Shown here: in pieces, positions 4,388-24,000 of the stretch
Position numbering within the stretch: position 1 is the stretch's first letter
Layout of the letters: each line of letters starts with the position of its first letter
Source of the DNA: Leptolyngbya sp. PCC 6406
GTDB taxonomy: Bacteria > Cyanobacteriota > Cyanobacteriia > Phormidesmidales > Phormidesmidaceae
NCBI RefSeq assembly: GCF_000332095.2
Contig: NZ_KI913949.1
Span: forward strand, 2,682,205-2,706,204
DNA length: 24,000 nt
Reading direction: 5' to 3'
Notes under the pieces: model-generated
What the model was told of the DNA's origin: nothing
The model's input: only the letters and a program-made list of their open reading frames with translations
Database searches by the model: none
Translations under genes and position numbers: made by a program

Positions 4388-5680
4388 CTACTGGGGGTCT
4401 GACAATATGCTCAGGCGCACGGTTTGTCCATCTTCTAGGGGACGATCGCTGCGGACCACCACCTGTTCACCGGGGTTGAGCCCTGACAGGATGGCTACTT
4501 GACCATTGCTGCGATCGCCGAGTTCTACCGAACGGGCTACCACCTTGGGGGCATCGCTGTCCCGGTCTTGAACCACGAAGAGGGTGGGCGGTTCTCCTTG
4601 GAGCGCTTCCGTGGGTACCACGACGGCATCCGAGCGCTGACCGAGAAATCGTAGCCGTGCTAACAGGCCGCTGCCGATGCGGCCCTGGGGATTGGGAATG
4701 GTTACCTCCACTGGCAGCAGACGGGAGGTGGTGTCGGCTACGGGGGTGATGCGGGTGACTTGGCCCGTGGCAGTGAGGTCGGGAAAGGCGTCTAGGCGCA
4801 CCTCCACGGGTTGTCCCCGGCTGATGCTGCTCAGGTTCAACTCCGACACCTCGACGGTGATCTTGATGGTGCTGAGGTCGCCGATTTGCAGGAGTTCTGC
4901 CCCAGTCTGGGCAAAGTCACCGGGCTCCACCAATCGCCCCAGGACAATGCCGGAGAGGGGCGATCGCACCGTGGCGAAGGCTAGCCGCTCCTGGGACTGG
5001 GCGACCACCGCCCGCTGGGAATCTACGCGCCCTCGGGTGGCATTCACCGCCTGTTGCCGGGTCCGCACTTGTTCCTGGGCTGATTGCAATGCTTTCTGGG
5101 CCGTATTTAGCACCAGTTGGGCCTGCTCTGCATCCTGTAAGGACACTGCTCCGGCGTCAGCAAGTTGCCGCAGGCGATTGGCTTCAATGCGGGCCTGCTC
5201 CACCTGGAGTTGGGCTTGGTCTACGGCGGTTTGGGCATCGCTGACCCCCGTCTGGGCTTGAGCCACCTCCGCCTGACGGGCAGCGAGTTCGGCCTGGGAC
5301 TGATTGACCCCCACTGTCAGCAGGTTGGGATCCAGACGGGCCAAGACCTCCCCGGACCCCACCGCATCCCCAGCGTCGGCGAATAGGTCAATCACCTGAC
5401 CCTCCACTTGGGCGCGGAGAGTGACAGATTGGGCCGGACGGGTTGTTCCGGTATATTCCAGGGCATCCTCCACGGAGCCTGTCGTCACCACCTGAGTCTC
5501 GACAGCGACGGGCTGGTCGTCGCCCCGTTCTCGGGGACCAGATTGGGCCACACTCTGGGGCATCCAGCTACAGCCGCTGCCCAGGGCTCCAACCATGAGA
5601 GCGGTGCCCAGTAGGCGGGGCAACATCTTACGGGGGGAATTTATGGCTTGAAGCACCATCGTTCTCCTGGAACACTCCAT
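4388..5680 (-). CDS. RND efflux periplasmic adaptor subunit (MFP/HlyD family), probable lipoprotein
   Basis: Contains a Q/A-rich coiled-coil hairpin (AQSQAELAARQAEVAQAQTGVSDAQTAVDQAQLQVEQARIEANRL) flanked by beta-barrel segments. The likely true start is ATG at 5626, giving MLPRLLGTALMVGALGSGC with a signal peptide and Cys. It lies upstream of the RND permease on the same strand. Confidence 0.9.
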   Translation of the reverse strand: MECSRRTMVLQAINSPRKMLPRLLGTALMVGALGSGCSWMPQSVAQSGPRERGDDQPVAVETQVVTTGSVEDALEYTGTTRPAQSVTLRAQVEGQVIDLFADAGDAVGSGEVLARLDPNLLTVGVNQSQAELAARQAEVAQAQTGVSDAQTAVDQAQLQVEQARIEANRLRQLADAGAVSLQDAEQAQLVLNTAQKALQSAQEQVRTRQQAVNATRGRVDSQRAVVAQSQERLAFATVRSPLSGIVLGRLVEPGDFAQTGAELLQIGDLSTIKITVEVSELNLSSISRGQPVEVRLDAFPDLTATGQVTRITPVADTTSRLLPVEVTIPNPQGRIGSGLLARLRFLGQRSDAVVVPTEALQGEPPTLFVVQDRDSDAPKVVARSVELGDRSNGQVAILSGLNPGEQVVVRSDRPLEDGQTVRLSILSDPQ

Positions 5681-13511: not shown

Positions 13512-14046
13512 GGAGAAAACAGCCCCCCAGGGGACAGAGCCGGAAGCCAGTGAAACTGGCTCCATTGTCGAAGCTGGGGACGTGTCTAAATGGTTGACGG
13601 AAAATGGCTTTGGCCACGAGATTCTAGAGCCAGATCACCTCGGCGTTGAGGTCTTGAAGGTTGAGCCCCAGTTCCTGATTCCCTTCTGTACGGCGCTGTA
13701 TGCTTACGGATTTAACTATCTCCAATGCCAGGGAGCCTATGACGACGGGCCGGGGGAAGCGCTGGTCAGCTTTTATCACCTGACGAAGGTGGATGACAAT
13801 GCTGATCACCCGGCGGAGGTTCGGGTCAAGGTGTTCTTGCCTCGGGATAATCCCAGGGTGCCTTCGGTGTACTGGATCTGGAAGGCGGCGGACTGGCAAG
13901 AGCGAGAAAGCTATGACATGTATGGCATTTTCTATGAGGGCCATCCAAATCTAAAACGGCTACTGATGCCGGAGGACTGGGTGGGCTGGCCCCTGCGAAA
14001 GGATTACATCTCGCCAGATTTCTACGAACTCCAAGACGCCTATTAA
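13504..14046 (+). CDS. ndhJ: NAD(P)H-quinone oxidoreductase subunit J (NdhJ/NuoC)
   Basis: Contains SKWLTENGF...[30 protein letters not shown]...[29 protein letters not shown]. Overlaps ndhK by 8 nt. Confidence 0.95.
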
Positions 14047-14146
14047 GGGACTTTCGAGGAGCCTTAGAGGGTGTTTGATCGCTATGCCTGCTACCTAGTC
14101 GATGCAAAATCCTGAAACCCTCGATAACGAGTAGTGCTGTGTGCCT

Positions 14147-14181
14147 TCAAGAGGCGCGGTTATACATACCGCGCCTCTTGA
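14147..14181 (+). terminator. Strong hairpin downstream of ndhJ (operon terminator candidate)
   Basis: tcaagaggcgcggt (14147-14160) pairs perfectly with accgcgcctcttga (14168-14181) around a 7-nt loop. No long T tract follows. Confidence 0.6.
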
Positions 14182-14197
14182 TCTATCCGCACCTTTT

Positions 14198-14227
14198 AGA
14201 TCGGGAATATTGAGATCGGGAATATTG
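14198..14227 (+). promoter_or_regulatory. 15-bp perfect tandem direct repeat (agatcgggaatattg, 2 copies) ending 11 nt upstream of the hsdM ATG
   Basis: Copies at 14198-14212 and 14213-14227. Each contains GATC and the palindrome AATATT. The position suggests an operator or leader element. Confidence 0.4.
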
Positions 14228-14238
14228 GACTGATAAGC

Positions 14239-16692
14239 ATGGACAGCGCCGTACACAACAAGCTGGTCTCCCTGATCTGGTCGATCGCCGACGATTGCCT
14301 CCGCGATGTCTATGTACGAGGCAAATACCGCGATGTTATCCTCCCCATGTTTGTGCTGCGGCGGCTCGACTGCCTGCTAGAGGTCACAAAAGATGCCGTA
14401 ATGGAGGAGGTGCGCTTCCAGACGGAAGAAGTGGGCCTGACTGAATTTGACCCTGAGGCTCTGAAGCAAGCCTCAAGCCACGTTTTCTACAACACCTCAG
14501 ACTGGACTCTGAAGAAGCTGGTAGAAACGGCCTCCAACAATCGCCAGATCCTAGAGGCCAACTTCAAAGCCTACTTAGATGGCTTCAGCCAGAACGTCAA
14601 AGAGATTATCGACAGCTTCTACCTGCGCGACCAGATTCGGCGCATGGTGCAGGCTGATGTGCTGCTCGACGTGCTGGAGAAGTTCACCAGCCCCAACATC
14701 AACTTCAGCCCCCACGACACCACCGATCCGGATGGGCGCAAGCTGCCGGGGTTGAGCAACCTGGGCATGGGCTATGTGTTCGAGGAGCTGATCCGTAAAT
14801 TTAACGAAGAGAACAACGAAGAAGCCGGGGAGCATTTCACCCCCCGCGAGGTGATCAAGCTGATGACTCACCTGTTGTTTATGCCGGTGAAAGACCAGCT
14901 TCCCCCAGTGATGCTGATTTACGACGGAGCCTGTGGGTCAGGGGGAATGCTCACCGAGTCCCAGAACTTCATCAACGACCCGGAAGGCGGCATCAAGTCG
15001 GATACCAAGGTTTACCTCTACGGCAAGGAAGTCAACAGCGAAACTTACGCCATTTGCCAGTCGGACATGATGATCAAGGGCAATAGCCCAGAAAACATCA
15101 AGTTCGGCTCCACCCTGGCAACGGATGATTTCGGCGACATGCGCTTCGACTTCATGCTAGAAAATCCGCCCTATGGCAAGTCCTATAAGGCCGACCAGAA
15201 ATACATCCTGGATGGCAAGGAAGTGCTGGATCAGCGGTTTGTCGTGCCCCTGAAAAACTTCTGGGGTGAAACCACCCTGGAACCAGCAATCCCCCGGTCT
15301 TCTGACGGACAACTGCTGTTCCTGATGGATATGGTCAGCAAAATGAAGCCCCTCAGCCAGAGCCCCCTCGGTTCCAGGGTGGCCTCGATCCACAACGGGT
15401 CATCGCTGTTTACGGGGGATGCGGGCAGTGGGGAGAGCAACATTCGCCGCTACATCATCGAGAACGACTGGCTGGAGGCGATCATCCAGTTGCCCCAGAA
15501 CCTGTTCTACAACACAGGCATTTCGACCTATATCTGGGTGTTGTCGAACCACAAAGCCCCGGAGCGCAAAGGTAAGGTGCAGCTCATTGACGCTTCGGAG
15601 CTATACCAGAAGCTGCGGAAGAACCTGGGGGCGAAGAACTGTGAGTTTGCCCCTGAGCACATTGAGCAGATTACCCGCCTGTATCTGGACCTGGTGGATC
15701 AGCCAACGCTGCCCCCCAATGGGGACGGCGAACAACCGCCCCGCCCGATCTCGAAGGTGTTTCGGAATCGAGACTTTGGCTTTTATAAGGTGACGATTGA
15801 GCGCCCATTGCGGCTCTCGGCCCAGTTCACGCCAGAGCGGGTGGCGGCGCTGCGGTATGCGCCAGCGCTGGCGGAGGTGATGGCGTGGGCCTATGGCAAG
15901 TGGGGCGACGATATCTACACCACTCTGGCTGAACACAAGCAGGTAATTGAAGACCACCTTGAGAAGGAAGAAATCAGCCTGAATCCGAAGAACCGTAAGG
16001 CTTTGTTTACCCCTAAGACCTGGACGGCCCAGCGGGAACTGATGCAAGCGGCTGAGCAGCTTATGGAGTCGATCGGGCAGGATGAGTGGAGCAATTTCAA
16101 CGCTTTTTCAGAAGCGGTGTCGGACTCGCTGAAGGAGCTGGGGCTGAAGCTGTCGGCCAGTGAACAGAAGCAGATCTTCAATGCCGTGACCTGGCGGGAT
16201 GAGTCGGCGGCGAAGGTGGTAAAGAAGGCCCACAAGCTGAAGGGCGAGAAGTTGGCGGCGCTGCTGGCGGCGTTGGACACGACGGCGGCGCACCTGGCGG
16301 ACTTTGGCTACTGGCCCACGGAGCAGGCCGGGGTGTGGATTGAGTATGAGACCGACAGCGAGTTACGGGATACGGAAAGCATTCCGCTGAACTATGCCCA
16401 CTCTTCGAGAAGCGCAGAGCGCTACACCCCCAACCCCTCTCCCAACGTTAAGAGAGGGGGGCAACAAATCCATCACTACTTTTTGCAGGAGGTGCGGCCC
16501 CATGTGGGGGATGCCTGGATTGACCTGGACAAGACTCAGATTGGCTATGAGGTTAACTTCAACAAGTATTTCTACCAGCACAAGCCGTTGAGGAAGTTAG
16601 AGACGGTGGTTGAGGAGATTTTGGCGTTGGAGGAGAAGACGGAAGGGTTGTTGAAGCGGTTGGTGAGCTTTGGGATGGTAGCCGATGGCTAG
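14239..16692 (+). CDS. hsdM: Type I restriction-modification system methyltransferase subunit HsdM (long form, 817 aa)
   Basis: Has an HsdM N-terminal domain (KLVSLIWSIADDCLRDVYVRGKYRDVILPMFVLRRLD), SAM motif I (YDGACGSGGML) and catalytic motif IV (NPPYGKS). The C-terminal GYEVNFNKYFY region is typical of this HsdM family. Confidence 0.95.
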   Translation: MDSAVHNKLVSLIWSIADDCLRDVYVRGKYRDVILPMFVLRRLDCLLEVTKDAVMEEVRFQTEEVGLTEFDPEALKQASSHVFYNTSDWTLKKLVETASNNRQILEANFKAYLDGFSQNVKEIIDSFYLRDQIRRMVQADVLLDVLEKFTSPNINFSPHDTTDPDGRKLPGLSNLGMGYVFEELIRKFNEENNEEAGEHFTPREVIKLMTHLLFMPVKDQLPPVMLIYDGACGSGGMLTESQNFINDPEGGIKSDTKVYLYGKEVNSETYAICQSDMMIKGNSPENIKFGSTLATDDFGDMRFDFMLENPPYGKSYKADQKYILDGKEVLDQRFVVPLKNFWGETTLEPAIPRSSDGQLLFLMDMVSKMKPLSQSPLGSRVASIHNGSSLFTGDAGSGESNIRRYIIENDWLEAIIQLPQNLFYNTGISTYIWVLSNHKAPERKGKVQLIDASELYQKLRKNLGAKNCEFAPEHIEQITRLYLDLVDQPTLPPNGDGEQPPRPISKVFRNRDFGFYKVTIERPLRLSAQFTPERVAALRYAPALAEVMAWAYGKWGDDIYTTLAEHKQVIEDHLEKEEISLNPKNRKALFTPKTWTAQRELMQAAEQLMESIGQDEWSNFNAFSEAVSDSLKELGLKLSASEQKQIFNAVTWRDESAAKVVKKAHKLKGEKLAALLAALDTTAAHLADFGYWPTEQAGVWIEYETDSELRDTESIPLNYAHSSRSAERYTPNPSPNVKRGGQQIHHYFLQEVRPHVGDAWIDLDKTQIGYEVNFNKYFYQHKPLRKLETVVEEILALEEKTEGLLKRLVSFGMVADG

Positions 16693-17098
16693 GGATTTGT
16701 TTCATGATTTAGTTAGATCTGCGCTGGAAGCTGAGGGCTGGACGATCACCGACGATCCCTATGAAGTTAGGCTCGATCGCAGCAAGTTTCAAATTGATTT
16801 GGCCGCAGAACAAATCATTGCAGCAGAAAGGGATAGTACTAAAATTGCGGTTGAAATCAAGAGTTTTCTGAGTCCATCAGTTGTCACAGACTTTTATGCC
16901 GCATTGGGTCAATTTTTAAGTTATCGCTTGGTTTTGCAAGAGGTAGAGCCACAACGAATTCTTTATCTGGCTGTTCCTGTCGATAGTTATGATCGGTTTT
17001 TTTAATCTAAATTTGCTCAGTTAGCCTTACATGAATATCAACTGAAGTTGGTTGTCTATGATTCCGAAAAAGGAGACATTGTAGAATGGATAAGTTAA
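16685..17098 (+). pseudogene. xisH: xisH (XisH-family protein) interrupted by an in-frame TAA at 17003-17005
   Basis: The N-terminal 106 codons match the XisH family (ARDLFHDLVRSALEAEGWTITDDPY...KIAVEIKSF...LYLAVPVDSYDRFF). After the TAA the same frame continues as SKFAQLALHEYQLKLVVYDSEKGDIVEWIS*, the usual XisH C-terminus. That frame ends 13 nt inside xisI. Confidence 0.8.
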
Positions 17099-17421
17099 CG
17101 ATTTATCGTCAGCATATCAAAGCTTTGCTATCCCAGTATGCAGGTTGGGGTAAATCCAAGAAGCCGTATGAATCACAACTTCTATTTGATGAGACACATG
17201 ACCATTATTTATGGTTAGATGTGGGCTGGGATGGATCCAAGCGGATTTATCATCCGGTCATGCATTTTGATATTAAGGATGAAAAAATCTGGCTACAGGA
17301 AAATATGACGGATTTGAATCCGGCTGCGGATCTGGTGGATATGGGTGTGCCAAAGGCGGACATTGTGTTGGGCTTACAACCACCGTATAAGCGACCCTAC
17401 ACTGACTATGGGGTGGCGTGA
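17086..17421 (+). CDS. xisI: XisI-family protein
   Basis: Translation is MDKLTIYRQHIKALLSQYAG...DHYLWLDVGWDGSKRIYHPVMHFDIKDEKIWLQENMTD...VPKADIVLGLQPPYKRPYTDY, the canonical XisI sequence. Confidence 0.9.
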   Translation: MDKLTIYRQHIKALLSQYAGWGKSKKPYESQLLFDETHDHYLWLDVGWDGSKRIYHPVMHFDIKDEKIWLQENMTDLNPAADLVDMGVPKADIVLGLQPPYKRPYTDYGVA

Positions 17422-17521
17422 ACGGGGATAAGTCACCAACTTCTCTATAGGTGTCAATGAGCTTTTTACCCCTTGTAATTTTGGGATGTTGTGGGAGAAA
17501 GACTAAGTGGTTTGCCTTGGG

Positions 17522-17647
17522 TTCTACAACAAGCAGCACAAGCCGTTAAGGGATCTGAAAACGGTGATTGAGGAGATTTTGGTGTTGGAGGAGAAGACGG
17601 AAGGGTTGTTGAAGCAGTTGGTGAGCTTTGAAAATTCGGGTGTTTAG
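17522..17647 (+). pseudogene. Remnant copy of the hsdM 3' end (last ~41 codons plus stop)
   Basis: 17534-17630 aligns to 16576-16672 with about 10 mismatches in 97 nt. In frame it reads FYNKQHKPLRDLKTVIEEILVLEEKTEGLLKQLVSFENSGV*, against YQHKPLRKLETVVEEILALEEKTEGLLKRLVSFGMVADG* in the intact gene. Confidence 0.8.
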
Positions 17648-17698
17648 GGATGGAGGGAAAACGATTTTTCTGCTCGTATTTAGGAGAGGAACAGTGAT

Positions 17699-18022
17699 AT
17701 GGACAAAAACTTAACCTTTCGCTACGACCGCGTGGGAGACATCCTCTATATCGATCTGTGCCCTCCCTATGCGGAGCAGGAGTCTGAGGAAATCGGGGAT
17801 GAAATTATTGCCCGGTTCAACCCAGAGTCAAATGCGATAGAAAATTTAGAGATTTTGTTTTTCTCGCAACGCTTTGCTGATAAGCCGTTATTTGAGTTGC
17901 CAATCTTAGCTGATTTCAAGTTGGCGAGTCAAGTTTCAAAGCCCTGCCTGATATCGCAGTTACGCCGAGGGGAAGTTGCTGCCAATCCTGATCTATTCAC
18001 AAACCACGATCGCCCGTTTTGA
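17699..18022 (+). CDS. DUF2283-like small protein
   Basis: The N-terminal pattern (FRYDRVGDILYIDL...SEEIGDEIIARFNPESNAIENLEILFFSQR) matches the DUF2283 fold signature. An RBS-like aggagagg lies upstream. Confidence 0.65.
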   Translation: MDKNLTFRYDRVGDILYIDLCPPYAEQESEEIGDEIIARFNPESNAIENLEILFFSQRFADKPLFELPILADFKLASQVSKPCLISQLRRGEVAANPDLFTNHDRPF

Positions 18023-18025
18023 ATA

Positions 18026-18271
18026 ATGCCCACAGTTTTAAGAATTGGTGCCTATCGTTTTTATTTTTACAGTCATGAACCCAACGAACCACCCCATGTG
18101 CATGTTGATCGTGATGCGTCATCCGTCAAGTTTTGGTTAGAGCCAGTGAGTTTAGCGAAAAACCTAGGATTTAGCGCAAAAGAGTTGCGCAAGCTAGGAG
18201 GGTTGGTTCAAGAGCATCAAGCAGAATTATTGGAGGCGTGGCATGGCTACTTTGGCAATTCAAACGGATGA
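18026..18271 (+). CDS. DUF4160 domain protein
   Basis: MPTVLRIGAYRFYFYSHEPNEPPHVHVDRD...FSAKELRKL...LLEAWHGYF is the characteristic DUF4160 N-terminus, with the PPHVHV motif. Confidence 0.85.
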   Translation: MPTVLRIGAYRFYFYSHEPNEPPHVHVDRDASSVKFWLEPVSLAKNLGFSAKELRKLGGLVQEHQAELLEAWHGYFGNSNG

Positions 18272-18515
18272 GCGGGTGAAGGCGGTGAGTTTCACGGAGG
18301 ATGCCATCAGCGTAGGGCTAATGGATGGGCGCATCATTACGGTGCCGCTGGTGTGGTATCCGCGCTTGCTGCACGCTACACCAGAGCAGCGGAAAGGCTG
18401 GGAAATTTGTGGTGGTGGCTATGGGTTGCACTGGGAAGCGATTGATGAAGACCTGAGCACGGAAGGAATGCTGCGGGGTGCGCCTGCGCCCGGTGCGGTG
18501 GGGGAGGTGGAGTGA
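18243..18515 (+). CDS. DUF2442 domain protein
   Basis: VKAVSFTEDAISVGLMDGRIITVPLVWYPRLLHATPEQRKGWEICGGGYGLHWEAIDEDLSTEGML is a typical DUF2442 sequence. It overlaps DUF4160 by 29 nt, and its TGA shares one base with the hsdS ATG. Confidence 0.8.
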   Translation: MATLAIQTDERVKAVSFTEDAISVGLMDGRIITVPLVWYPRLLHATPEQRKGWEICGGGYGLHWEAIDEDLSTEGMLRGAPAPGAVGEVE

Positions 18516-19822
18516 TGCCGACGTTTCCAAGGTATGAGAGTTACAAGGATAGCGGGGTTGAGTGGTTGGGAGAGATTCCGAATCATTGGAATTTTCACAA
18601 ATTAAAGCATATTGCTAAAGTTCGGTTAAGCAATGTAGACAAGCACTCAAGAGCTAATGAGCTTCCAGTCAAACTTTGTAACTACACCGATGTCTATTAT
18701 AGGAACTTTATTACCAGTGAAATTTCTTTCATGGAGGCTACTGCTACGGAAGAGCAGGTTCGTAGTTTTGCTCTAGAAAAAGGTGATGTTCTGATCACAA
18801 AAGACTCAGAATCATTCGACGATATTGCAGTTCCTGCATATGTTCCTGAAACACTGGCAAACACTATATGCGGCTATCATCTGGCACATATAAAACCGAC
18901 TTATATGGAGGGTAGCTATCTATTTAGAGCTTTTCAAGCCGAAGGAATTTCGTCACAGTTTAGAGTGTCTGCCAATGGAATAACAAGGTTTGGAATCGGC
19001 AAAAGTGCAATTAATGATGCAATTTTCCCACTTCCTCCCGTTGAAGAACAGAAGCGGATTGTTGAGTTTTTAGATCGCACTACCACCGAGATAGACCGTG
19101 CCATTTCCCAAAAACAACGCCTCATCGAACTCCTGCAAGAACAAAAAGCGATCGTCATCAATCAAGCCGTTACCCAAGGGCTAAACCCAAAAGCATCAAT
19201 GCGTGATAGTGGCCTCAATTGGCTGGGGTCGATTCCTCCGCATTGGGATGTCCGGCGAGCCAAGTTTCTCTTTAGAGAAGTAGATGAGCGTTCTCAGACT
19301 GGAACTGAAGAACTGCTCTCTGTTTCTCATATGACGGGAGTAACACCGCGATCAGAGAAGAACGTTTACATGTTCATGGCAGAAGACTACACAGGTTCCA
19401 AACTCTGCCGAAAAGACGACTTAGTTATCAATATTATGTGGGCCTGGATGGGTGCATTAGGCGTTTCAGACCGAATTGGAATTGTCAGTCCCTCCTACGG
19501 AGTCTTCAGGCAGATGGAGCCAGACACCTTTAATTCTTGGTATCTAGAGCATCTATTACGCAGCACGGAGTATGTTGCTCAATACAACAGAATCTCAACA
19601 GGCTTGCATTCATCTAGACTTCGGCTCTATGCCCATATGTTCTTAGGTATGGAAATCCTCTTGCCACCTAAGAAAGAGCAGGATCGGATTACATCAGTAA
19701 CTCTTGAAAGAACGCGGCAAATTGACGAAGCCATTAACTCTATTGAGTCTGAAATAACCACTCTAGGAGACCTTCGCTCAATCCTTATCTCCAAAGCCGT
19801 AACTGGAAAAATAAAAGTCTGA
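18515..19822 (+). CDS. hsdS: Type I restriction-modification specificity subunit HsdS (two target-recognition domains)
   Basis: The motif WLGEIPNHWNF...(TRD1) is followed by the central conserved helix EEQKRIVEFLDRTTTEIDRAISQKQRLIELLQEQKAIVINQAVTQGLNP. A second WLGSIPPHWDV...(TRD2) is followed by EQDRITS...LGDLRSILISKAVTGKIKV. The ORF track starts at GTG 18512, but ATG 18515 is more likely. Confidence 0.93.
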   Translation: MPTFPRYESYKDSGVEWLGEIPNHWNFHKLKHIAKVRLSNVDKHSRANELPVKLCNYTDVYYRNFITSEISFMEATATEEQVRSFALEKGDVLITKDSESFDDIAVPAYVPETLANTICGYHLAHIKPTYMEGSYLFRAFQAEGISSQFRVSANGITRFGIGKSAINDAIFPLPPVEEQKRIVEFLDRTTTEIDRAISQKQRLIELLQEQKAIVINQAVTQGLNPKASMRDSGLNWLGSIPPHWDVRRAKFLFREVDERSQTGTEELLSVSHMTGVTPRSEKNVYMFMAEDYTGSKLCRKDDLVINIMWAWMGALGVSDRIGIVSPSYGVFRQMEPDTFNSWYLEHLLRSTEYVAQYNRISTGLHSSRLRLYAHMFLGMEILLPPKKEQDRITSVTLERTRQIDEAINSIESEITTLGDLRSILISKAVTGKIKV

Positions 19823-19832
19823 GGGCGAAATT

Positions 19833-19886
19833 ATGGTCAATCAAACCAATCAAGACATTCCCCTCACCGCTGTTAGAAGAAAATAG
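19833..19886 (+). other. 17-codon mini-ORF resembling the hsdR 5' leader (probable scar of the original hsdS-hsdR junction)
   Basis: ATGGTCAATCAAACCAATCAAGAC... (MVNQTNQDIPLTAVRRK*) starts 10 nt after the hsdS stop. Compare hsdR ATGGTCAGCAAAACCAATGAACGA (MVSKTNERAL) and the MNT gene ATGATCAGCCAAACCAACGAACAA (MISQTNEQALTAV). Confidence 0.45.
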
Positions 19887-19898
19887 GAGGAAACCCTG

Positions 19899-20159
19899 AT
19901 GGTCAATTCATCTCTGGATACCCAAGTTCGCTATGTCACCAACGCCGCTGGCAAAACCACCGATGTGTTGGTGCCCCTGGAATTGTGGCAACAGCTCATT
20001 CACGCCCTGCAAGATCCTGATAGTGGTCTGGCCTGGATCGATGAGCACGAACCCAACGCGAAAATTCTGGCAGATTTGCAAACCTCGCTTCAACAAGCTG
20101 CCGCAGGGCAGACCTTTCCGGTTGCTCAGCTTTGGGATGATTTGGATGACGAGCCATGA
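19899..20159 (+). CDS. Putative type II antitoxin (partner of the downstream RelE/ParE toxin)
   Basis: An 86-aa acidic protein. Its N-terminal beta-strand/helix pattern (VRYVTNAAGKTTDVLVPLELWQQLIHAL) is common in cyanobacterial antitoxins. It has a 4-nt ATGA overlap with the toxin gene. Confidence 0.6.
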   Translation: MVNSSLDTQVRYVTNAAGKTTDVLVPLELWQQLIHALQDPDSGLAWIDEHEPNAKILADLQTSLQQAAAGQTFPVAQLWDDLDDEP

Positions 20160-20491
20160 CGAACGTTCGATTTACGTCGAGTTTTAAGCGTCGTCTCAAA
20201 GGGCTTAAAAAACGCTATCGTCAAGTTCAAGCCGATCTACAGCCGATTATTCGAGAACTCGAACAAGGCCACCTCATTGGTGATCAAGTTTCTGGAGCCA
20301 CTTCTACAGTTTTCAAAGTACGTGCCAAGAATAGCGATATTCCCACAGGCAAAAGTGGCGGGTATCGGATTATCTACCAGGTGCTTTCTCCCGAAAACAT
20401 TCTGCTGCTGCTCGTTTATGCTAAATCCGACCAGGCCGATGTCAGTATGGGAGAGATCGAAACTGCTATTGCCAAAGCTCTAGAAGAGTGA
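20156..20491 (+). CDS. RelE/ParE-superfamily type II toxin
   Basis: Contains FTSSFKRRLKGLKKRY...VFKVRAKNSDIPTGKSGGYRIIYQV...ILLLLVYAKSDQADVS, the characteristic RelE/ParE (Gp49/HigB-like) core. Confidence 0.85.
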   Translation: MTNVRFTSSFKRRLKGLKKRYRQVQADLQPIIRELEQGHLIGDQVSGATSTVFKVRAKNSDIPTGKSGGYRIIYQVLSPENILLLLVYAKSDQADVSMGEIETAIAKALEE

Positions 20492-20498
20492 AGAACCT

Positions 20499-20816
20499 AT
20501 GATCAGCCAAACCAACGAACAAGCCCTTACTGCTGTAATGGTTCTCCAAACCTTGCGATCGCAGCCCAACCTGTTCACCCAATTCAAAATCAAAACCCTC
20601 GCCCTCTTCGGCTCCACCGCCCGCAACGAAGCCACCGACACCAGCGACCTCGATTTTTTGGTGGAATTTGAAGGATCTACCACCTTCGACCTCTATATGG
20701 ATCTGAAATTTTTCCTGGAAGACCTGTTTGAGAAAAACGTCGATTTAGTCACCAAGGGTTCTCTCAAGCCGCAGATTGCCGACATCGTGCTAGCGGAGGC
20801 GATCAATGTCGCCTAA
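20499..20816 (+). CDS. Minimal nucleotidyltransferase (MNT, DNA polymerase beta-like; antitoxin half of HEPN/MNT modules)
   Basis: Carries the LALFGSTARNEATDTSDLDFLVEF motif (GS...DxD). The first 13 codons resemble the hsdR leader. The native start may be ATG 20538 (MVLQTL...). Confidence 0.85.
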   Translation: MISQTNEQALTAVMVLQTLRSQPNLFTQFKIKTLALFGSTARNEATDTSDLDFLVEFEGSTTFDLYMDLKFFLEDLFEKNVDLVTKGSLKPQIADIVLAEAINVA

Positions 20817-20849
20817 ACTGACGCTTTACCTCAATAACATCCTCAAATG
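20805..20849 (+). pseudogene. Possible remnant of the cognate HEPN/DUF86 gene (14 codons)
   Basis: An ATG overlaps the MNT 3' end, as is typical for MNT-HEPN pairs. It reads MSPKLTLYLNNILK*, resembling the DUF86 N-terminal ..YL.DIL.. pattern, and then terminates. No intact HEPN ORF follows. Confidence 0.3.
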
Positions 20850-20916
20850 AACAAGCCTTGGCAAGACATATCGAGCAGTCCGACTAAGATAGAAACACCG
20901 TAGGAAAGGCCAGCCG

Positions 20917-21522
20917 ATGGTTCAACTCCAGCCCGAACGACTCAAGCCCCCCTCCCCAGACCAGCGCATTGTCCACTCCGGCATTACCTGGCAGCAATTC
21001 AAGCTGATTCAGTCGGGCTTTGGCGATACCCGCAACGTGCGCCTGTTTTACTACAACACCACCGTCGAAATCATCATGCCGGGGCGCGATCACGAATTTT
21101 TCAAATCCATTATTGGCTTTCTACTAGAGCTCTTTTGTCTAGAAACAGGCACCGAATTTGAACCCCTGGGCTCCACCACCCAAGAGCGAGAAGGCGAAGC
21201 CTCCGCCGAACCGGATGAGTCCTACTGTTTTGGCGCATCTAAGCCCACCCCCGATTTAGTCCTTGAAGTGATTGTTACCAGCGGTAGCATCAAGAAACTG
21301 AACCTCTATCAAGTGTTGAACATCCCCGAAGTTTGGTTTTGGGAAGATGGCGTGTTCAGCCTCTATCGGCTGCGAAGTTCCGAATATGAGGCAATCAGCC
21401 AAAGCGAAATTCCAGAACTGGAAACACTGGATATTGAACTGCTCACCCGCTGCGTGTTGATTGCCGAAACTTCCCGCCTTGATGCCGCTAATATCTTCCG
21501 CAATGCACTGAAGTCTAAATGA
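20917..21522 (+). CDS. Uma2-family (DUF820) putative endonuclease, copy 1
   Basis: Contains VRLFYYNTTVEIIMPGRDHEF...EPDESY...PDLVLEVIVTSGS...YQVLNIPEVWFWEDG, which is Uma2 / PD-(D/E)xK-like architecture. Confidence 0.85.
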   Translation: MVQLQPERLKPPSPDQRIVHSGITWQQFKLIQSGFGDTRNVRLFYYNTTVEIIMPGRDHEFFKSIIGFLLELFCLETGTEFEPLGSTTQEREGEASAEPDESYCFGASKPTPDLVLEVIVTSGSIKKLNLYQVLNIPEVWFWEDGVFSLYRLRSSEYEAISQSEIPELETLDIELLTRCVLIAETSRLDAANIFRNALKSK

Positions 21523-21557
21523 TCCCCTGCTCTATTAAGTTTTGAGGCTGGTTTGCC

Positions 21558-22109
21558 ATGACCGTCACCCCCTACAAATGGACATTGGATCGCTACCATC
21601 AAGCGATTGATGCAGGTTTGTTTGACGACCAACCCATAGAGCTACTCCGGGGAGACCTCATCGTTACGCCGCCAGAGGGAAAACTCCATGCCTACTACAA
21701 CAGTGAAGTAGGGGACTATTTGCGGGCACTGCTGGGCAGTCGAGGTAAAATCCGTGAAGCTCATCCCATTACCCTCCCAAACGACTCCGAGCCCATTCCT
21801 GACCTAGCAATTGTGAAGCCCCTAGGGGCGGTATACCTAGAGCATCACCCCTACCCTGGCGATATTTTCTGGCTGATCGAATTTTCCAAAGCCACCCTTA
21901 GCCCAGATCTCACCGTCAAGCGTGCGATTTATGCCGAAGCGGGGATTCCTGAATATTGGGTAGTGAATCTGAACCACAAAGAACTGAACGTCTTCCGAGA
22001 CCTAGACAACGGTCACTACACCATTGAAGAGACCTACACCACAGGCCATGTTTCTCCCTGTGCGTTTACCAACATTGAAATTTCTGTGCAACGCCTGATG
22101 AATCCCTAG
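21558..22109 (+). CDS. Uma2-family (DUF820) putative endonuclease, copy 2
   Basis: Contains YKWTLDRYHQAIDAGLFDDQPIELLRGDLIVTPPEG..H......IPDLAIV...LIEFSKATLSPDLTVKRAIYAEAGIPEYWVVNL, the canonical Uma2 sequence. Confidence 0.88.
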   Translation: MTVTPYKWTLDRYHQAIDAGLFDDQPIELLRGDLIVTPPEGKLHAYYNSEVGDYLRALLGSRGKIREAHPITLPNDSEPIPDLAIVKPLGAVYLEHHPYPGDIFWLIEFSKATLSPDLTVKRAIYAEAGIPEYWVVNLNHKELNVFRDLDNGHYTIEETYTTGHVSPCAFTNIEISVQRLMNP

Positions 22110-22123
22110 TCGAGATCAGCCCT

Positions 22124-24000
22124 ATGGTCAGCAAAACCAATGAACGAGCGCTGGAAGATTGCATCGAAGCTGCATTGGTGGAGGGTGCCCGCTATGAAAA
22201 GGGCGACCCGGCTGACTTTGACCAGGAGTTTGCCTGCGATCGCGAGAAATTCTGGCGCTTCCTGGAAACCACCCAGCCCGAACAACTGGCCAAGGTGCAG
22301 GATCAGCCCAACTGGCAGCGGCTAATTCTGGAGCGCTTTCACCGCAAAGTCAAAAAAGACGGCATCCTCTCAGTGCTGAAAAAGGGCATCGCCATCAACG
22401 ATGCCGACTTTACCCTGCTCTACAGCCTGCCCTACAACGACGCCAACCCTACCATCCGCGAAAACTTCGATCGCAATATCTTCTCCGTCACCCGCCAGGT
22501 TCACTACTCCGAAAGCAACCCTGGCCTGTCCATCGACCTGGTGCTGTTTATCAACGGCATGGCGATCGCCACGATGGAACTCAAAAACCCCTGGTCTGGC
22601 CAGACCGTCTACCACGCCAAAAAGCAATACTGCCAAGACCGCGACCCCAAAGAAACCCTGCTCAACTTTGGCCGCTGCCTCGTCCACTTCGCCGTAGACC
22701 CCGACGAAGTCTGGATGACCACCAAACTGGCCCAGGACAAAACCTACTTCCTCCCCTTCAACCAAGGCTGCAACTACGGCAAAGGCAACCCGCCGAATGT
22801 GGGGGCCGACGGCACATCGGGCGGCCACAAAACCGCCTACCTGTGGGAAGACGTGCTCACCCGCGCCAGCCTCGCCACCATCATTGAGCACTTCGTCCTG
22901 CTAGAGGGGGACAAAAAAGATCCCCTCCCCAAAAAGACCCTGATCTTCCCCCGCTACCACCAGCGCGATGTGGTGCGACAGTTGCTCAGCCATGCCAAAA
23001 CCCACGGCCCTGGCCAGAAGTACCTGATTCAGCACTCCGCAGGTTCCGGCAAGTCCAACTCCATCACCTGGACCGCCTACCAACTGATCGAACTCTACCC
23101 CGATGGGGCCGACCGACCCCTGTTTGATTCCGTCGTGGTGGTCACCGATCGCCGCATCCTCGACAAACAACTGCGGAACAACATCAAAGACTTTTCCGAA
23201 GTCAAAAACATTGTCGCCCCTGCCTTCAAATCCTCTGACCTGAAAGCCGCGCTGGAGCAGGGCAAGAAAATCATCATCACCACCATCCAGAAATTTCCCT
23301 TCATCGTCGATGGCATCGAAGACATGGGCGGTAAGAACTTTGCCGTGATCATTGACGAAGCCCACTCCTCCCAGAGCGGCCTTGCTGCCGACAAAATGAA
23401 CATGGCCCTGGGCAACGATGACAACGATGACAACGATGACGACGAGCCCGAAGACAACCAGGATCGCATTCTCAAAGTGATGGCAGGCCGCAAGATGAGC
23501 CCCAACGCCTCCTTCTTCGCCTTCACCGCCACCCCCAAAAACACCACCCTAGAGAAATTTGGCCAGCCCACCCCAGACGGCGGCTTCGAGCCCTTTCACC
23601 TGTATTCCATGAAGCAGGCGATCGAAGAAGGCTTCATTCTAGATGTGCTGGCCAACTACACCACCTACCGCAGCTACTACGAGATTCAGAAATCCATCGA
23701 GGAAAATCCCGAATTTGAAACCGTCCGCGCCCAGAAAAAACTCCGGGAAAAAGTCGAAAACCACTACCTGACCATCAACACCAAAGCCAACATCATCGTT
23801 AACCACTTCCTGGAGAGCGTGGTTGCCCCCAAGCAGCTCAAAGGCAAAGCCCGAGGCATGGTCGTCACCCGCAACATTGAAGCCGCCATTCGCTATTTTT
23901 TCGCCATCCGCGACGGGCTCAAAGCCGCCAACGCTCCCTTTGGCGCGATCGTCGCGTTTTCCGGCAAAAAGACCATCGACGGCATCGAATACACCGAAGA
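22124..24000 (+). CDS. hsdR: Type I restriction endonuclease subunit HsdR, N-terminal ~625 codons (continues past the window end)
   Basis: The hand-translated frame is open from ATG 22124 to nt 24000. It shows a PD-(D/E)xK nuclease motif (SIDLVLFINGMAIATMELKN), helicase motif I (QHSAGSGKSNS), the DEAH box (VIIDEAHSSQ) and FTATPK. It is absent from the ORF track only because there is no stop codon in the window. Confidence 0.93.
   Translation, partial: MVSKTNERALEDCIEAALVEGARYEKGDPADFDQEFACDREKFWRFLETTQPEQLAKVQDQPNWQRLILERFHRKVKKDGILSVLKKGIAINDADFTLLYSLPYNDANPTIRENFDRNIFSVTRQVHYSESNPGLSIDLVLFINGMAIATMELKNPWSGQTVYHAKKQYCQDRDPKETLLNFGRCLVHFAVDPDEVWMTTKLAQDKTYFLPFNQGCNYGKGNPPNVGADGTSGGHKTAYLWEDVLTRASLATIIEHFVLLEGDKKDPLPKKTLIFPRYHQRDVVRQLLSHAKTHGPGQKYLIQHSAGSGKSNSITWTAYQLIELYPDGADRPLFDSVVVVTDRRILDKQLRNNIKDFSEVKNIVAPAFKSSDLKAALEQGKKIIITTIQKFPFIVDGIEDMGGKNFAVIIDEAHSSQSGLAADKMNMALGNDDNDDNDDDEPEDNQDRILKVMAGRKMSPNASFFAFTATPKNTTLEKFGQPTPDGGFEPFHLYSMKQAIEEGFILDVLANYTTYRSYYEIQKSIEENPEFETVRAQKKLREKVENHYLTINTKANIIVNHFLESVVAPKQLKGKARGMVVTRNIEAAIRYFFAIRDGLKAANAPFGAIVAFSGKKTIDGIEYTE
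23414..23440 (+). repeat. 9-nt in-frame tandem repeat (aacgatgac, 3 copies) encoding NDDNDDNDD in hsdR
   Basis: Copies at 23414-23422, 23423-23431 and 23432-23440, within the acidic segment GNDDNDDNDDDEPEDNQD after the DEAH box. Confidence 0.9.

Follow-up and report, generated by a model that had tools for sequence, protein, structure and literature searches.

A model that invokes homology-facilitated illegitimate recombination was proposed for the effector-immunity arrays of type VI secretion systems (T6SS) and for rhs loci (PMC5361080), and the displacement of rhs C-terminal ends, together with orphan cdiA-CT/rhs-CT modules, was described by Jackson et al. 2009, a work used here in the form in which it is cited in PMC5361080. 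In a separate line of research, accessory and defence genes have been found embedded in type I restriction-modification (R-M) operons, as exemplified by PrrC, the Campylobacter rlo genes and TgvAB and by the notion of 'guilt by embedding' (PMC11411939; bioRxiv 10.1101/2024.01.29.577857; PMC12707154). Embedded genes in R-M and other defence operons are used to discover immune systems, while their arrival and their variation among close relatives have been unexplained so far. We have analysed a stretch of 24,000 nucleotides (nt) from Leptolyngbya sp. PCC 6406 (contig NZ_KI913949.1), hereafter the window, which carries 3′ of ndhK/ndhJ a complete type I R-M operon (hsdM, hsdS and hsdR) with small toxin-antitoxin-like genes embedded within it. 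Beyond two of the embedded genes, xisH and xisI, lies a second copy of the 3′ end of hsdM. We consider, with a probability of about three in four, that this copy derives from an older hsdM allele, whose 3′ end was displaced downstream when a segment formed by another hsdM 3′ end, xisH and xisI was recombined in. The locus works like a displacement array but is not a polymorphic-toxin locus.

The two copies of the hsdM 3′ end (copy 1 and copy 2 in Table 1) were recovered by a repeat search as an ungapped direct repeat of 97 nt in which 87 bases match, and self-BLASTN of the copies gave 89.7% identity over 97 nt (E = 1.8e-30). The initial annotation of this DNA had estimated about 10 mismatches per 97 nt, 3 of them in a core of about 70 nt, and had named a lack of significant similarity as a result that would refute its reading. 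The computed alignment contains 10 mismatches, unevenly spread (7 within the opening 27 nt against 3 within the remaining 70; Fisher p = 0.004), and with the E value given above the similarity is significant. No comparable second repeat was found when positions 14000-19000 were compared with themselves, and the repeat search detected no inverted repeats at the cassette boundaries. As annotated, copy 2 reads in frame to a stop codon of its own, within a 46-codon open reading frame (ORF; 17507-17647) that ends in ...LVSFENSGV, a different ending from the ...LVSFGMVADG of the intact hsdM (protein ends are written up to the stop codon throughout), and xisH, with its ATG at 16685, overlaps the hsdM stop codon at 16690-16692. 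The proposal that xisH-xisI lies exactly between the copies had to be amended, since a stretch of 112 nt (17422-17533) parts the xisI stop codon from copy 2. Homology to hsdM, weak and with a 6-nt rearrangement, begins about 15 nt before copy 2 (near 17519). Another idea was that synonymous sites in the final ~35 nt of hsdM show unusual conservation, as a hot spot or an embedded signal would; this was unsupported in 40 alleles and in 19 cyanobacterial alleles.

Related loci were gathered by an HsdM scan of one genome per species and of a metagenome collection, which gave 160 loci, and by protein look-ups that added closer ones; the labels L001 to L171 denote the loci of this comparison set (~170). 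The HsdM protein of the window is 80-88% identical to cyanobacterial HsdM proteins; an exact look-up of its sequence gave no record in the index consulted. One of the full-length HsdM relatives, 85% identical, led to the allele L161, in which the intact hsdM ends in ...SFGNLGV and is followed by a 109-amino-acid (aa) toxin-like gene, a 77-aa DUF2283 gene and hsdS. Positions 17534-17684 of the window align (84.8%, 151 nt) with a stretch of L161 that runs from the end of hsdM through its stop codon to codon 12 of the 109-aa gene, and positions 17686-17929 align with the L161 DUF2283 gene (90% at the nucleotide level and 97% in protein over 77 aa). This colinearity across hsdM end, stop codon and cargo indicates that the second copy stems from an L161-type hsdM allele, as its 3′ end, and has kept that allele's cargo beside it: the displaced fragment has remained linked to the former allele's partner genes. 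A relative with an hsdM ending like ...SFENSGV ahead of a DUF2283 gene had been predicted, and L161 is such a relative, with the 109-aa toxin-like gene standing between the two. In the window this toxin-like gene is a relic, tblastn with the L161 protein matching aa 1-14 at 86% and the remainder (L161 3747-4012) being deleted; the L161 protein itself gives a weak match to PBECR2 (RelE/barnase-like), below the Pfam cutoff. The last 30 codons of the window DUF2283 gene (17930-18022) are missing from the L161 orthologue and resemble the C-terminus of an antitoxin-like gene of L002 (3475-3786; 59% over 27 aa), so that the C-terminus of the DUF2283 gene looks, judging from these alignments, like another fusion scar.

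NCBI annotates the displaced fragment (17507-17647) as a 46-aa hypothetical protein. The ORF has no Pfam match and is homologous solely to the last ~40 residues of HsdM. Of the 10 differences between the copies, eight are private to the displaced one, and its five private amino-acid replacements (K>D, E>K, V>I, A>V and R>Q) are consistent with a decaying fragment. The 46-aa 'hypothetical protein' is a pseudogene fragment, and its public annotation should be flagged accordingly. That the similarity could be due to chance, or that copy 2 could belong to an intact gene of another function, can be dismissed: although the ORF is open and annotated, the E value, the Pfam result, the restriction of the homology to the HsdM end and the private changes all argue against it, and the remnant peptide, used as a query against the protein database, returned its own ORF alone, short queries having little power there.

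The first copy has different affinities. Its core, at the end of the working hsdM, is almost identical to the cores of L161, L162 and L163, and sliding-window identity at a resolution of 150 nt showed these three loci as the nearest relatives through the end of the core. The chimerism that the initial annotation had predicted for the 3′ third of hsdM was not borne out at that resolution, because the nearest relative does not change before the tail; the switch is confined to the hsdM tail, at ~16630-16672. From ~16615-16630 on, the hsdM tail and xisHI are colinear with L002 (80%, 819 nt) and L168 (81%, 794 nt), and also with L171 (74%, 922 nt) and L170 (77%). Relatives combining an hsdM end with xisHI, which had been proposed as a check, were found as such modules in L002, L171, L165 and L001. 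The hsdM stop overlaps the xisH start in the same form, GATGGCTA(G/A), in two diverged hsdM sub-lineages, and the GC content drops across the hsdM/xisH border from ~0.57-0.61 in hsdM to ~0.38-0.45 in xisHI. The xisH and xisI genes are adjacent and overlapping, and the xisH reading frame is not intact: a TAA at 17003-17005 replaces a Gln codon (CAA) present in four relatives, the remainder of the window xisH being 88% identical to the intact XisH of L168. The xisH of L002 is likewise interrupted by an in-frame stop, located elsewhere in the gene. Relatives of xisI, 77-83% identical, occur inside as well as outside hsd loci. As a separate observation, L168 (4544-4599) and L170 (~4470-4599) carry xisHI outside hsd loci with a decayed hsdM 3′ end of 60-140 nt directly 5′ of xisH; these pairs are either modules that travel together with their anchor or leftovers of hsd loci since lost.

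The tails and flanks of the two copies match different alleles, which means that two allelic 3′ ends stand side by side and that the repeat is not a local duplication. It is shown that each copy is orthologous to an allele class of its own, and that scars of this kind occur more than once. Among the related loci, hsdM-end remnants were found in at least 8 of ~170, from about 6 independent junctions. Acaryochloris marina MBIC11017 (L001) and a second A. marina locus (L165) have one junction in common, with the order hsdM-xisH-xisI-remnant-hsdS, at which the xisI stop TGA coincides with hsdM TTGAGG. The order is hsdM-antitoxin-PIN-remnant-xisH-xisI-hsdS in L002, hsdM-Fic-remnant-hsdS in L006, cargo-remnant-hsdS in L161 and PDDEXK_3-remnant-next cassette in L112, and L107 contains three YhcG nuclease genes with two remnants between them. 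The L107 nucleases are 28-35% identical to each other and their separators more than 90% identical to the flanking hsd genes. Remnants thus flank Fic, PIN, YhcG, PDDEXK_3 and DUF2283 cargo where no xisHI is present, and their left boundaries vary from event to event (about -15, 13, 45, 46 and 60 in core coordinates). No integrase was found among the window ORFs scanned against Pfam. From the varied cargo, the varied boundaries and the lack of an integrase we conclude that the process is recurrent, is not specific to xisHI and does not act at a fixed site.

In L002, L006 and L107 the remnants form in-frame fusions with the initial ~22 hsdS codons. The resulting hsdS-hsdM fusion ORFs, of 44-55 codons including the last 20-33 hsdM codons, were located at 5039-5173 and 6309-6449 of L107, 4215-4382 of L002 and 6561-6725 of L006; they sit between embedded cassettes, and the two in L107 have the same junction sequence. 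Three further candidates were set aside. A fixed att-like boundary was considered, as the L001/L165 and L002/L006 remnants start at Leu-Arg codons and those of the other events do not, which by a rough estimate is not significant among six events. Second matches to the hsdS N-terminus ~650 nt into every hsdS are the normal internal HsdS repeat and not scars, and a second match in L005 lies in a messy 5.6-kb mosaic and was left out of the remnant count.

Tails and cargo are associated across alleles. The C-terminus of HsdM is conserved and only its last 4-8 codons vary, and the codons after ...LVSF co-vary with the cargo downstream: tails end in ..DG before xisH, in G(D/E)AN or GEM(T/K) before GmrSD, in G(G/D)SVKI before SocA/PemK, and in GNLGV or ENSGV before the PBECR2-like gene. 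This co-variation implies that the cargo travels with the hsdM tail and that the exchange points lie in the conserved core, which bears out the earlier suggestion that the conserved hsdM terminus serves as an anchor for exchange. Relatives whose HsdM is 85-88% identical carry unrelated cargo at this place (GmrSD, SocA with PemK, or the PBECR2-like gene with DUF2283). The hsdM-hsdS gap measures at least 300 nt in 67 of 142 loci, and the two genes are adjacent in 72.

Taken together, the colinearities with L161 and with the xisHI modules support the interpretation of the repeat as a recombination scar, in which a new hsdM end and xisHI from another allele displaced the old end. According to this model, incoming DNA consisting of an hsdM 3′ end with a different tail, xisH and xisI would pair on its left side with the conserved hsdM sequence by homologous recombination, and would be joined on its right side illegitimately, ~130 nt 5′ of the resident stop codon. 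The resident 3′ end and its cargo would then be pushed downstream and not replaced, and the locus would be left with a functional hsdM that has a new tail, with the new cargo and with a short direct repeat. Such a process goes by the names of homology-facilitated illegitimate recombination and '3′-end displacement'. In the hsdM-hsdS gap of this family of type I R-M operons it would repeatedly stack small cassettes of accessory genes, of toxin-antitoxin-like and nuclease types. An ordinary exchange with anchors on both sides, in hsdM and in hsdS, would be scarless and is probably behind most of the cargo differences. That only short repeats are seen may reflect that longer ones recombine out, and joins further 3′ would destroy hsdS. 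The left junction lies within conserved hsdM sequence, and the right one (~17434-17533) has no homologue. We infer the order of the events, the manner of joining on the right and the way in which the DNA entered; the left crossover cannot be positioned within the 97 nt.

Several points weigh against displacement by one-sided recombination. At the right join, the 85-nt spacer 17434-17518 matches nothing, and no microhomology is shown in the window. No sampled donor allele joins the hsdM sub-lineage with the KLETVVEEIL core to this xisHI lineage, and the intact copy has a core of the kind usual in the hsdM clade to which the window belongs. This leaves a closely related donor or a left crossover within the last ~45 nt, and the latter would need a duplicated recipient segment, as two chromosome copies or a circular intermediate. 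DNA uptake by the strain would find no support in the present data. Finally, the clustering of the mismatches between the copies (7 of 27 against 3 of 70) is not predicted by simple decay, so that later gene conversion may have occurred.

A Campbell-type integration would account for part of this. A circle containing part of an hsdM 3′ end, xisHI and the spacer would enter by a single crossover in the hsdM core and leave hybrid direct repeats, which could later loop the cassette out. Direct repeats do flank the cargo, the near-identity of the last 70 nt as opposed to the first 27 nt fits a crossover inside the core, and the intact copy combines a native-type core with a donor-type tail. The fusions of remnants to hsdS 5′ ends in L002, L006 and L107 would be expected if a linear piece running from an hsdM end through cargo to an hsdS start had closed into a circle, and the two L107 elements have one junction sequence in common. 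In the window, however, the spacer holds no significant hsdS 5′ fragment: when the stretch 17422-17533 was aligned locally with five hsdS starts, 39 of 500 shuffles scored at least as well as the best case. Nor has a circular form or an excision product been observed, and among alleles the core shows no unusual conservation in its 3′ block, the 97 nt being too short to place a crossover. We regard such an integration as unlikely, albeit the strongest of the alternatives. As circularisation itself needs an illegitimate join, it is a variant of displacement by one-sided recombination and not a contradiction of it.

A broader proposal, which we hold to be improbable, is that the hsdM-end fragments, often with hsdS 5′ sequence and mirrored by hsdR 5′ ends, are portable recombination sites of an integrase-free, integron-like array whose cassettes loop in and out via homologies of 50-130 nt. 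In a stronger version of this proposal, the unit of hsdM end and xisHI would be a self-propagating homing module whose XisH nuclease cuts hsdM ends that are free of xisHI. Sequences of a mirrored kind were noted on the hsdR side, where a second copy of the first ~37 hsdR codons stands 5′ of the Uma2 cassette that precedes the real hsdR in L161 (6361-6471), L163 (7395-7505) and L004 (13664-13774). The MNT genes of the window and of L161 start with the first 10 hsdR codons (MxSQTNEQAL; 20499-20528 in the window).

A site-specific or homing mechanism was also weighed, in which the hsdM end is an att-like target and an hsdM-end fragment with xisHI forms an autonomous mobile module, driven by the XisH nuclease with XisI or by an unlinked recombinase. 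XisH has a PD-(D/E)XK fold, and XisHI assist the XisF-mediated excision of the fdxN element (PMC3424549, PMC4853749); the constant GATGGCTA(G/A) overlap in two diverged sub-lineages and the hsdM-end fragments retained by xisHI pairs at non-hsd sites would suit such a module. Against this, like remnants flank cargo without xisHI, their boundaries differ among events, the ectopic xisHI copies could equally be relics of decayed hsd loci, and no recombinase domain, of the XisF type or other, was found among the ORFs of the window scanned against Pfam. Because other cargo bears the same scars and xisH is a pseudogene both here and in L002, we judge this mechanism very unlikely.

That the hsdM 3′ end was duplicated in tandem on the spot, through slippage or unequal sister exchange, and that the copies then diverged with no foreign allele involved, has hardly any probability left. 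In its favour, each copy of the window is the other's best match within the 97-nt core (88-90%), and cyanobacteria are polyploid. The colinearity with L161 already contradicts it, as tails and flanks are orthologous to an L161-type and a xisH-linked allele class, respectively. Moreover, xisHI stands between the copies with its sharp drop in GC content, and duplication leaves the arrival of the cargo unexplained.

The features of the operon are collected in Table 1.

Table 1. Coordinates of the hsd operon, its embedded genes and the two hsdM 3′ ends, counted from the first letter of the 24,000-nt window
Feature	Positions	Strand	Basis
hsdM, intact, type I methyltransferase subunit, 817 aa, ending in ...LVSFGMVADG	14239-16692	+	Pfam HsdM_N (E = 2e-21), N6_Mtase (E = 3e-53)
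Repeat copy 1, conserved 3′ core of the working hsdM	16576-16672	+	repeat search, self-BLASTN
xisH, PD-(D/E)XK-type protein with in-frame TAA	16685-17088	+	Pfam XisH, 134/134 profile positions if the stop is read through
xisI, intact, 111 aa	17086-17421	+	Pfam XisI, 110/110 profile positions
Spacer	17422-17518	+	first ~12 nt alone prolong the alignment to the L002 xisI/hsdS junction
Displaced hsdM 3′ end, pseudogene fragment (copy 2, 17534-17630; stop codon, 17645-17647)	17519-17647	+	colinear with the intact hsdM end of L161
Relic of toxin-like gene, MEGKRFFCSYLGEEQ followed by a stop codon	17650-17697	+	tblastn and blastn against L161
DUF2283 gene	17699-18022	+	Pfam; codons 1-77 homologous to L161
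DUF4160 and DUF2442 gene pair, further embedded cassette	18026-18515	+	Pfam
hsdS, specificity subunit	18512-19822	+	Pfam Methylase_S
hsdR, 5′ part, cut by the window end	22124-24000	+	tblastn with L161 HsdR: 89% identity over 625 aa

The DUF2442 gene overlaps the start of hsdS. Accessory genes are also found in the hsdS-hsdR gap (19899-22109), namely an antitoxin-like and a RelE/ParE-like gene, MNT and two Uma2 genes, and the content of this gap varies among relatives. Three nuclease or toxin-like genes of the window are inactivated with their partners kept: the PBECR2-like gene is cut to 14 codons and DUF2283 is kept, xisH carries a nonsense codon and xisI is kept, and HepT is cut to ~14 codons (20806-20850) beside a retained MNT gene (20499-20816), the full pair being present in L161. 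With a nonsense codon in xisH and two truncated toxin genes, the locus is decaying. Within hsdM, positions 16394-16470 form an in-frame mini-insertion with a palindrome (CCCCTCTCCC...GAGAGGGG) coding for ...TPNPSPNVKRGG...; it has other lengths in L163 and L002 and is absent from L006, a pattern suggestive of a small dispersed repeat that a surface loop can accommodate. The stretch between ndhJ and hsdM contains a perfect inverted repeat of 14 nt (14147-14181) and a tandem repeat of 15 nt (14195-14224). Scans of 16400-18600 and 14000-20000 gave no promoter, terminator or Rfam signal above chance. In L001 (13252-14534 and 15860-17270), hsdS appears split into two overlapping ORFs, and hsdR ends after ~190 codons and is followed by an unrelated ORF.

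Compared with systems in which insertions leave repeats, the locus shares some traits and departs in others. As in integron arrays, new cassettes enter by a fixed point, older ones are pushed downstream and short repeats separate them; here, however, neither an integrase nor attC-type imperfect inverted repeats were found in the window, and the separators are fragments of hsdM and hsdS with variable boundaries. As in islands and prophages located at the 3′ ends of tRNA or protein genes, the target is kept intact by an incoming copy of its 3′ end and direct repeats flank the insert, but here there is no integrase, the repeats are 90% and not 100% identical, their length varies by event and the insert measures only ~0.85 kb; remnant boundaries differ among the six events. 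A transposon or insertion sequence does not fit either, the 97-nt repeat being 90% identical and lacking terminal inverted repeats, with no transposase.

The locus shares with the reported embedded type I R-M systems the presence of GmrSD, toxin-antitoxin pairs and nucleases between hsd genes and a content that differs among close relatives. Those reports cover content and function; in the texts searched there is no description of duplicated hsd ends as insertion scars, and the words 'recombination' and 'remnant' are absent from the Payne et al. preprint. The scars described here offer a concrete and testable mechanism, in which conserved hsdM ends, and apparently those of hsdS and hsdR too, act as homology anchors and occasional one-sided recombination stacks new cargo before old. 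The short duplicated gene ends could also serve as a simple sequence signature for dating and ordering cassette gains.

The closest parallels are the displacement systems. In the displacement of T6SS effectors in Vibrio cholerae (Kirchberger et al. 2017, PMC5361080), as in the model favoured here, homology acts upstream and an illegitimate join downstream, double-crossover replacement is commoner and scarless, and 3′-fragment scars are found in a minority of loci. The two cases differ in system and phylum, and the partners here are antitoxin-like and embedded defence-type genes instead of immunity genes selected because they protect against kin. The likeness to rhs/cdiA is that homology in a conserved gene region provides the anchor, that a 3′ end arriving with its partner gene takes the place of the earlier one, that the latter moves downstream with its own partner while keeping short homology to the main gene, and that repetition produces arrays. 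In rhs/cdiA, however, the displaced 3′ end encodes a variable toxin domain, which is the payload, whereas the hsdM 3′ end is conserved except for the 4-8 tail codons, the payload consists of separate downstream genes, and the host gene is a methyltransferase. In the window a 3′ fragment with homology lies downstream, is linked to its former partners and recurs among relatives, and the combination of a toxin domain with an immunity gene is lacking. While 3′-end displacement itself is established for polymorphic-toxin loci, the displaced end here is a conserved, non-toxic gene terminus serving only as an anchor, which extends 3′-end displacement to a housekeeping-type defence enzyme.

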